Assembly (NCBI RefSeq): GCF_024700885.2
Contig: NZ_CP117016.1
DNA: 64,000 nucleotides
Strand: one strand, 5' to 3'
Source of the DNA: Escherichia coli
GTDB taxonomy: Bacteria > Pseudomonadota > Gammaproteobacteria > Enterobacterales > Enterobacteriaceae
The translations under genes were made by a program, and so were the position numbers. Under the pieces are notes generated by a model that was not told the DNA's origin, ran no database searches, and saw only the letters and a program-made list of their open reading frames with translations. This document shows positions 2,120 to 2,836 of the stretch, one piece after another (the stretch's first letter is position 1; every line of letters begins with the position of its first letter).

Positions 2120-2836
2120 TCAATACTCCCATGCCTCAAACGCTAACGGCATATTATTTAACAAATCCCGACGCTCACGCCAGTCAGGAATAAACTGATC
2201 CATATGCAACCGGAAGCGAGCATTATGGTGACGTTCCAGAAGATGAACCAGTTCATGCACCAGAATATACTCCAGACACTCCGGCGGCTTCTTAATTAGC
2301 TCCAGATTGAGCCAGATTCGTTTTGTTGTAGTGTTACAGGTGCCCCAAAAGGTTTTCATCTTTTTGATGCCCCAGAATGTTAGGGGAACACCGATTCGGT
2401 CCTGCCATTCAGGTAGAAGCTTAGCCACCTGCTGTTTTAGTTCATGTCGATAAAATTCACTTAACGCCAATGCCTTATTTTCATCACGGGTTCCCGGTTG
2501 AACATAAAGCTGGAGCTTATTATTTCCTGCAACTTTTACTTCGTGACGCCCGTGACGCTCAATCACAAGTAGGCGATATCTTCGGCCCCAAAGATAGTGG
2601 CACTCTCCGCTGACCATTTCCCTCTCTGATTGACGAGGCTGTCTGGCGAAATCCTGCTGCTGTTTTCTGATCCAGCGAAAGCGTGAAGCAACCGCCATAC
2701 GAATCGCCGTCTCCGTCATATGTTCCGGCGCTGAAACGCGGACTTTGCCATCAGGCGGCAGCACGCTGATATGCAGATTCTTAATCGCCTTACGGTTGAC
2801 CAGCAAGTGTAACGAGCCTATTTGCATGATTGGCAT
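2120..2836 (-). CDS. HEXXH zinc metallopeptidase (YgjP/DUF45, M48/WLM-like), translationally coupled to hsdR
   Basis: 238 aa with HELVHLLERHH motif; start ATG shares one nucleotide with the hsdR TGA stop (ATGA overlap at 2836). Confidence 0.75.
   Translation of the reverse strand: MPIMQIGSLHLLVNRKAIKNLHISVLPPDGKVRVSAPEHMTETAIRMAVASRFRWIRKQQQDFARQPRQSEREMVSGECHYLWGRRYRLLVIERHGRHEVKVAGNNKLQLYVQPGTRDENKALALSEFYRHELKQQVAKLLPEWQDRIGVPLTFWGIKKMKTFWGTCNTTTKRIWLNLELIKKPPECLEYILVHELVHLLERHHNARFRLHMDQFIPDWRERRDLLNNMPLAFEAWEY

Follow-up and report, generated by a model that had tools for sequence, protein, structure and literature searches.

In a 64,000-nucleotide stretch of Escherichia coli DNA (assembly GCF_024700885.2, contig NZ_CP117016.1; hereafter the window), the gene for the type I restriction subunit HsdR is followed directly by a gene encoding a putative zinc peptidase of the YgjP-like family. 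Comparison with related loci reveals that this YgjP-like gene belongs, as a conserved fourth gene, to one type I restriction-modification (R-M) lineage. The hsdR-YgjP pairing is ancient and tight, and it is a widespread, routinely annotated arrangement across bacteria and archaea. The features of the window that bear on this finding are as follows.

2120..2836, minus strand: YgjP-like gene ('M48 family metallopeptidase' in the Prokaryotic Genome Annotation Pipeline, PGAP; WP_257844107.1), 238 amino acids (aa), product predicted to be cytosolic and basic (Pfam, PGAP, structure model)
2225..2257, minus strand: zinc-binding/catalytic motif HELVHLLERHH, spacing HExxHx5H, residues 194-204 (H194, E195, H198, H204)
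2834..2850, minus strand: hsdR/M48 junction, with Shine-Dalgarno (SD)-like AAGGAA, hsdR stop and M48 ATG, overlapping by 1 nucleotide (nt) (direct reading)
2836..5931, minus strand: hsdR, type I restriction subunit R, 1031 aa, TTG start (TIGR00348, PADLOC REase_I, PGAP)

The hsdR-YgjP junction and its recurrence

The first-pass annotation of this DNA, made from the sequence alone, had described a 238-aa protein starting exactly on the hsdR stop codon. The open reading frame (ORF) listing places this gene on the minus strand at 2120..2836 with an ATG start, and direct reading of the junction letters (...GAA TAT CAC TGA TGC CAA TC...) bears the description out: the hsdR stop TGA (2838..2836) and the peptidase ATG (2836..2834) have one base in common, giving TGATG, in the minus-strand context ...GAATATCAC-TGA-TGCCAATC.... 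The SD-like AAGGAA lies at 2850..2845, 8 nt 5' of the peptidase ATG. In Photorhabdus, Vibrio and Methylomicrobium, the homologues line up with the window protein from its initial 'MP' onward, so this first ATG is the true start. A terminator scan around the peptidase gene returned weak consensus matches only. As read from this layout, the junction is of the kind typical of translational coupling. The upstream ORF is HsdR by both profile searches (TIGR00348, 546 bits; PADLOC REase_I, 1636 bits), and the solved structure nearest to it is that of EcoR124I HsdR (E 3e-35).

The recurrence of this arrangement was assessed in a census of 80 loci with relatives of the peptidase, taken from one-genome-per-species contigs whose ORFs were searched with the window HsdR, HsdM and HsdS; linkage was counted in the 72 loci whose upstream sequence reaches 1 kb or more. 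In 47 of these 72, a same-family hsdR (phmmer E close to 0) lies directly upstream of the YgjP-like gene and stops no more than a few bases from its start. Broken down by peptidase identity, this upstream hsdR is present in 24/26 loci at 45% or above, in 17/27 at 40-44% and in 6/19 below 40%. The linked hosts include cyanobacteria, actinobacteria, Bacteroidota, Firmicutes, Deltaproteobacteria, Methanomicrobiales and Nitrososphaerota.

Junctions were compared in 49 linked loci, including one genome beyond the census, with the start codon placed by alignment. The two genes overlap in 35 of them (by 1 nt in 18, by 14 nt in 7 and by 11 nt in 6), while nine show gaps of 0 to +3 nt and five show gaps of +16 to +51 nt. 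Furthermore, a reverse census that started from HsdR (Dickeya, Morganella, Providencia, Sedimenticola and Shewanella) found the peptidase gene in 5/5 cases, with a 1- or 4-nt overlap. Adjacency together with an overlapping or abutting junction was therefore found across taxa, and marks the YgjP-like gene as a predicted operon component of this HsdR lineage. In two Bacteroidales contigs (Prevotella/Bacteroidaceae; L062:161-3814 and L071:1587-5656) the order is inverted, with ygjP preceding hsdR on the same strand, yet the genes remain adjacent (3 nt apart in L062, a 4-nt overlap in L071), indicating that the peptidase gene is tied to hsdR as such and does not merely occupy the last place in the operon.

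A second type I lineage with a YgjP-like gene was found on conjugative plasmids of Klebsiella and E. coli. Its HsdR and YgjP-like proteins are 32% and 31% identical to those of the window, respectively, and its genes show the same 4-nt overlap, with an HsdM of normal length (508 aa). The pairing is not universal on plasmids, 1767 of which carry an HsdR relative versus 468 with a YgjP relative; EcoR124-like plasmid HsdRs fall in the weaker part of the HsdR match list. Among complete E. coli genomes, hsdR and the peptidase gene are each present at 95% identity or above in 249 records.

Family, motif and predicted fold of the peptidase

The Pfam search assigns the 238-aa protein to the YgjP-like family (PF01863, formerly DUF45; COG1451; type member K-12 YgjP) with an E-value of 1.4e-61 and 208.5 bits, residues 25-228 covering model positions 5-206 of 207. 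This full-length match, with its HExxH, upholds the YgjP/DUF45 identity put forward in the first-pass annotation, and the HELVHLLERHH motif named there is present at residues 194-204. The precomputed PF01863 label is carried by 120 of the 120 listed homologues. The family is large, with 20,098 representatives at E <=0.001 and 1,025 at <=1e-30 in a search of 1.84 billion representatives of 50%-identity clusters, and, unlike the window gene, many of its members are unlinked to hsdR.

The accompanying label of M48/WLM-like is likewise in line with the protein being a zincin with SprT/WLM-like and M48-like affinities. It carries the HExxHx5H motif and gives a partial match to SprT-like (PF10263; E 3.4e-6); its matches to WLM (PF08325; E 0.012) and Peptidase_M48 (PF01435; E 0.081) are non-significant. 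Membership of the M48 family does not follow from the latter match, and the PGAP name 'M48 family metallopeptidase' is loose when set against the full-length match to PF01863. No family match to the protein was found in NCBIfam, PADLOC or PHROGs; PADLOC matches HsdR, HsdM, HsdS and the DarT and DarG proteins of the same island, but not the peptidase.

Across 60 diverse aligned homologues, H194, E195 and H204 do not vary, H198 is present in at least 90% of the sequences, and a conserved strand, MKTxWGSC, precedes the HExxHx5H motif. H204, six positions after the second histidine, is an invariant histidine as in WLM-type zincins and a candidate metal ligand, as read from the sequence alone. In members of the M48 family (Ste24, HtpX, BepA), the third zinc ligand is a glutamate on a downstream helix (the gluzincin arrangement), and the proteins are mostly membrane-embedded or periplasmic. 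No helix long and hydrophobic enough to span a membrane is present in the structural model of the window protein, and no signal peptide is evident on reading its sequence. Given the conservation of the catalytic residues in the 60 homologues and the recurrence of the junction across phyla, the arrangement of hsdR and the peptidase gene is not one of chance.

The AlphaFold2 (AF2) model of the protein is confident (predicted local distance difference test, pLDDT, 94.6) and consists of a zincin core plus a 117-residue N-terminal domain and a 30-residue helix. Its best structural matches are all peptidases, so that the metalloprotease fold on which the first-pass annotation had staked its reading is indeed predicted. 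A sequence search of the PDB with the protein gave only marginal matches to minigluzincins (selecase, proabylysin and projannalysin), which are single-domain archaeal proteins of ~110 residues with no known R-M context, and in comparison with which the N-terminal domain and the helix of the window protein are additions. Among the closest folds are also SprT/Spartan and Wss1 (WLM), proteases that depend on DNA for activity and clear it of DNA-protein crosslinks; in contrast to these, the window protein is without the Spartan zinc-binding subdomain and without ubiquitin- or SUMO-binding modules. The protein is strongly basic (isoelectric point 9.9, against a family median of 9.86, and 11.1 for the N-domain), a charge compatible with nucleic-acid binding, and the N-domain gave no support for DNA association at the level of its fold.

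With its motif intact and invariant and its fold confidently modelled, the YgjP-like protein is probably an active zincin peptidase. We also considered a non-proteolytic metal hydrolase, that is, a nucleotide pyrophosphatase (compare K-12 YgjP) or a nuclease on a zincin-like scaffold, of which YbeY is an example. This appears decidedly improbable: the catalytic glutamate of HExxH, typical of peptidases and absent from YbeY, is invariant in the family, the structural matches point to peptidases throughout, and nucleotide hydrolysis would give no reason for an obligate coupling to hsdR. A literature search for YgjP, DUF45 and COG1451, and for an M48 metallopeptidase or metal-dependent hydrolase together with hsdR or type I restriction, found no functional study, nor, among the papers accessible, experimental work on the family. 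Makarova and colleagues, in their 2011 work on defence islands, are said to have listed COG1451 with type I R-M.

Possible roles of the peptidase

Standard R-M biology does not explain this gene, a point on which we agree with the first-pass annotation, which had proposed restriction alleviation, turnover of HsdR or an independent effector function. The census supports a functional tie to HsdR specifically, and does not discriminate among these three. Type I enzymes are a hazard to their own host at unmodified sites, and they remain bound to DNA after cutting. The way in which the host is protected is less clear in type I families other than that of EcoKI. A dedicated protease gene co-translated with hsdR, in a lineage found across bacteria and archaea, is an obvious candidate for such a safeguard.

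We therefore propose, tentatively and as somewhat less than an even chance, that the YgjP-like protein targets HsdR or the restriction complex on DNA, as a dedicated HsdR-directed protease that limits or clears such complexes. The stop/start overlap would cause the peptidase to be made together with HsdR. Under this proposal, HsdR molecules translocating along unmodified host DNA, or stuck on DNA after cleavage, would be degraded by the peptidase, resulting in a built-in restriction alleviation or in clearance of the complex. The functional parallel would be the ClpXP-dependent degradation of HsdR in EcoKI (type IA), in which proteolysis of HsdR protects unmodified host DNA, and the mechanistic parallel would be the DNA-dependent proteases Spartan and Wss1. 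The analogy with ClpXP is a possible one of function and not of descent, as ClpXP is a general ATP-dependent serine protease that is encoded elsewhere in the genome and has no homology to the window peptidase. ClpXP control of EcoKI HsdR is also the only post-translational control of a type I enzyme cited in the paper describing the island discussed below (PMC12255303). If correct, the proposal would bring a conserved fourth component into what textbooks describe as a three-subunit enzyme, and would connect defence with Spartan-like DNA-dependent proteolysis.

The C-termini of both partners are conserved. In 44/50 loci, HsdR of this lineage terminates in a conserved helix and then [DE]-Y, at or beside the last position (...Q-x-E-Y-COOH); part of this conservation may stem from a ribosome-binding site that the same codons contain. 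For the linked peptidases, the tail is H-E-[DE]-W-x-Y-COOH in 23/48 loci, and the W-x-Y tail is absent from every relative that is demonstrably without an upstream hsdR. An acidic-aromatic C-terminal tail common to both partners (window 2836-2880 for HsdR and 2120-2150 for M48, and 50 related loci) is an unexplained observation. In minigluzincin zymogens, the closest structural relatives, C-terminal tails occupy the active-site cleft and bring about autoinhibition. A more specific form of the proposal would be a fourth subunit with a protease activity switched on by DNA or by translocation, cutting the HsdR of its own system independently of ClpXP and possibly gated by the [DE]-Y and W-x-Y tails; it would rid DNA of dead-end complexes and be a prokaryotic, defence-linked counterpart of Spartan/Wss1. 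We regard this as possible but rather doubtful.

These tails bear equally on a different role, that of a maturation or assembly factor that processes HsdR or docks on it (for instance on its C-terminal helix or [DE]-Y) and is required for restriction. The linkage to hsdR, the junctions and the reverse census would fit such a factor just as well. Nonetheless, we consider it distinctly unlikely, because many well-studied type I enzymes, EcoKI and EcoR124I among them, function without any such factor, because plasmids with an HsdR relative far exceed those with a YgjP relative, and because the conservation of the HsdR tail may be owed in part to the embedded ribosome-binding site.

An effector role that does not involve HsdR was also weighed, in which the basic protease would act against phage or plasmid proteins, such as the acidic DNA mimics Ocr and ArdA, as counter-counter-defence or backup, or as an abortive effector when restriction is blocked. 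The gene is located in a proven anti-phage island, and a strongly basic surface would suit acidic DNA mimics. In addition, in two Lachnospiraceae loci (L044:6989-8875 and L057:1265-3817) the YgjP-like protein, whose gene immediately follows hsdR, carries a long fused C-terminal extension with a second HExxH (HECFHW) and a weak IrrE/Peptidase_M78 match (E 0.016), to which L057 adds a Cro/C1-type helix-turn-helix (HTH) domain (E 0.001), an architecture of the sensor or regulator type. Such an effector is nevertheless unlikely: known DNA mimics bind the M2S core, yet the gene tracks hsdR and not hsdM or hsdS, the protein has no match in the defence and phage collections searched above, and neither toxicity nor a defence effect has been reported for it.

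Several observations weigh against a dedicated action of the peptidase on HsdR. Unlinked relatives adjoin housekeeping genes (trehalose-phosphate synthase, phosphoglycerate mutase, methylthioadenosine (MTA) nucleosidase) and have no hsdR beside them, and clustering on identity by the unweighted pair group method with arithmetic mean (UPGMA) mixes hsdR-linked and unlinked members, with nearest-neighbour agreement in 58/72. Accordingly, the YgjP-like fold is not restricted to R-M, and we do not claim a monophyletic R-M subfamily. No HsdR-YgjP fusion protein was found among the top 150 representatives, and the UniProt entry for E. coli K-12 YgjP lists a weak UTP pyrophosphatase activity. Finally, ArdC, the anti-restriction protein of plasmid R388, contains an SprT-like protease domain that is tied to type I R-M and yet is dispensable for the measured phenotype, protease activity being unneeded for anti-restriction. 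ArdC differs from the window protein in having a single-stranded DNA-binding N-domain and in being encoded by the invading plasmid, whereas the window gene belongs to the R-M operon.

The host island and its variable cargo

A 1.5-kb probe across the hsdR-peptidase junction is 100% identical to E. coli strain MLI114, in which PGAP annotates, on one strand, an HTH-like protein, hsdM, hsdS, darT, darG, hsdR and an M48 family metallopeptidase, followed by insertion sequence (IS) fragments. Because the DarG accession (WP_000634203.1) is identical, the genes follow one another in the same order and the promoter elements agree, the window island is the 'RRDM' (RptR-RMS-DarTG-M48) island of enteropathogenic E. 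coli (EPEC) E2348/69 (Zhang et al., NAR 2025; PMC12255303). The seven-ORF order of RRDM, which is flanked by IS elements, is identical to that of the window, and the differences are only allelic, the accessions of HsdR, HsdM, HsdS, DarT and M48 differing between the strains. Zhang et al. cloned the island with its seven ORFs, demonstrated that it defends against phage and analysed RptR in detail; in their work, M48 is a predicted Zn metallopeptidase that is co-conserved in a neighbourhood plot, and it was neither mutated nor given a role (PMC12255303). With the identical island and gene published and both covered by routine PGAP annotation, the gene and its position are already known and are not new. 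As this island has already been cloned and is active in E. coli as pBR322-RRDM (PMC12255303), the role of the peptidase should be easy to test.

The remaining features of the island are listed below.

5950..7017, minus strand: darG, macrodomain antitoxin, cargo (NF048014, 451 bits; WP_000634203.1)
7014..7670, minus strand: darT, DNA ADP-ribosyltransferase toxin, cargo (NF048013, 263 bits; PADLOC DarT)
7683..9017, minus strand: hsdS, specificity subunit (PADLOC Specificity_I, 437 bits; PGAP coordinates)
9017..11455, minus strand: hsdM, long-form methyltransferase subunit, 812 aa (TIGR00497, 283 bits; PADLOC MTase_I, 1426 bits)
11495..11734, minus strand: rptR, 79-aa island repressor (PGAP 'HTH-like domain-containing protein'; position and size match RptR of PMC12255303)
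11735..11800, minus strand: island promoter, with -35 TTGAAC followed by tandem AGCTAATTT / AGCTAACTT / ATCTATTAT repeats with TAGCTA RptR sites

The interval between hsdS and hsdR is a variable cargo slot (window 5950-7670; loci L002, L085 and L087-L091). It holds DarTG in the window (DarTG2), Dickeya and Morganella, Fic plus a Schlafen/AlbA ATPase (Schlafen/AlbA-HATPase) in Methylomicrobium, GmrSD-like pairs in Providencia and Sedimenticola, GmrSD_N plus an AAA ATPase in Shewanella, and YecA on the E. coli plasmid of the second lineage, and it is empty, with a 4-nt overlap of hsdS and hsdR, in many actinobacterial and other loci. The cargo thus changes while the hsdR-ygjP pair persists, which indicates that the peptidase follows hsdR and not the cargo. 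A DarTG-related role for the peptidase was rejected, since loci with other cargo or with none still keep the gene. In Dickeya (L087), an additional 191-aa DarT-like ORF precedes darT.

Upstream of rptR, the promoter contains three 9-bp direct repeats (tttAGCTAAtttAGCTAActtATCTATtat), the third of which is a variant, and exact TAGCTA RptR sites at 11767 and 11776. The promoter is intact, and its -35 TTGAAC, repeated AGCTAATTT and TAGCTA sites match the published description (PMC12255303). RptR itself matches phrog_30666, a phage protein family of unknown function (E 5e-37). A further reading would have M48 cut RptR or another regulator and de-repress the operon on infection, in the manner of CapP-CapH, ImmA-ImmR and IrrE-DdrO. 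This is very improbable, as RptR has been reported in Gammaproteobacteria only (PMC12255303), whereas the hsdR-YgjP pair occurs in many phyla including archaea; moreover, the peptidase gene lies at the end of the operon opposite rptR and tracks hsdR even in the loci with inverted order. A search of the 80 census loci, for which little sequence upstream of hsdM is available, returned no RptR homologue.

HsdM of the window (9017-11455) is unusually long, with a methyltransferase core extending to about residue 445 and then a C-terminal extension of ~370 residues that looks rich in coiled coil; relatives have the long form as well (806-815 aa).

The downstream edge of the island (213-1757) is decayed and carries a truncated transposase fragment of IS600 (IS3 family), as well as an internal fragment of an autotransporter beta-barrel gene at 213-1121. 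Such a decayed, IS-bearing edge is in keeping with the EPEC island as described, flanked by IS elements and acquired horizontally. Between this edge and the peptidase gene, a plus-strand ORF of 131 aa (1803-2198) is convergent with the M48 gene, sharing 79 nt with the 3' end of the latter. This ORF has no matches in NCBIfam, PADLOC or PHROGs and is left unannotated by PGAP, and it is probably either spurious or a remnant cut off by the adjoining IS600 fragment.

In Providencia, the region just downstream of the hsdR-YgjP pair (L089:10865-13612) contains two Antirestrict genes (PF03230, ArdB/KlcA-type), DUF932, RadC and DUF987, a gene content that points to an anti-restriction leading-region module beside the type I system on the same element.
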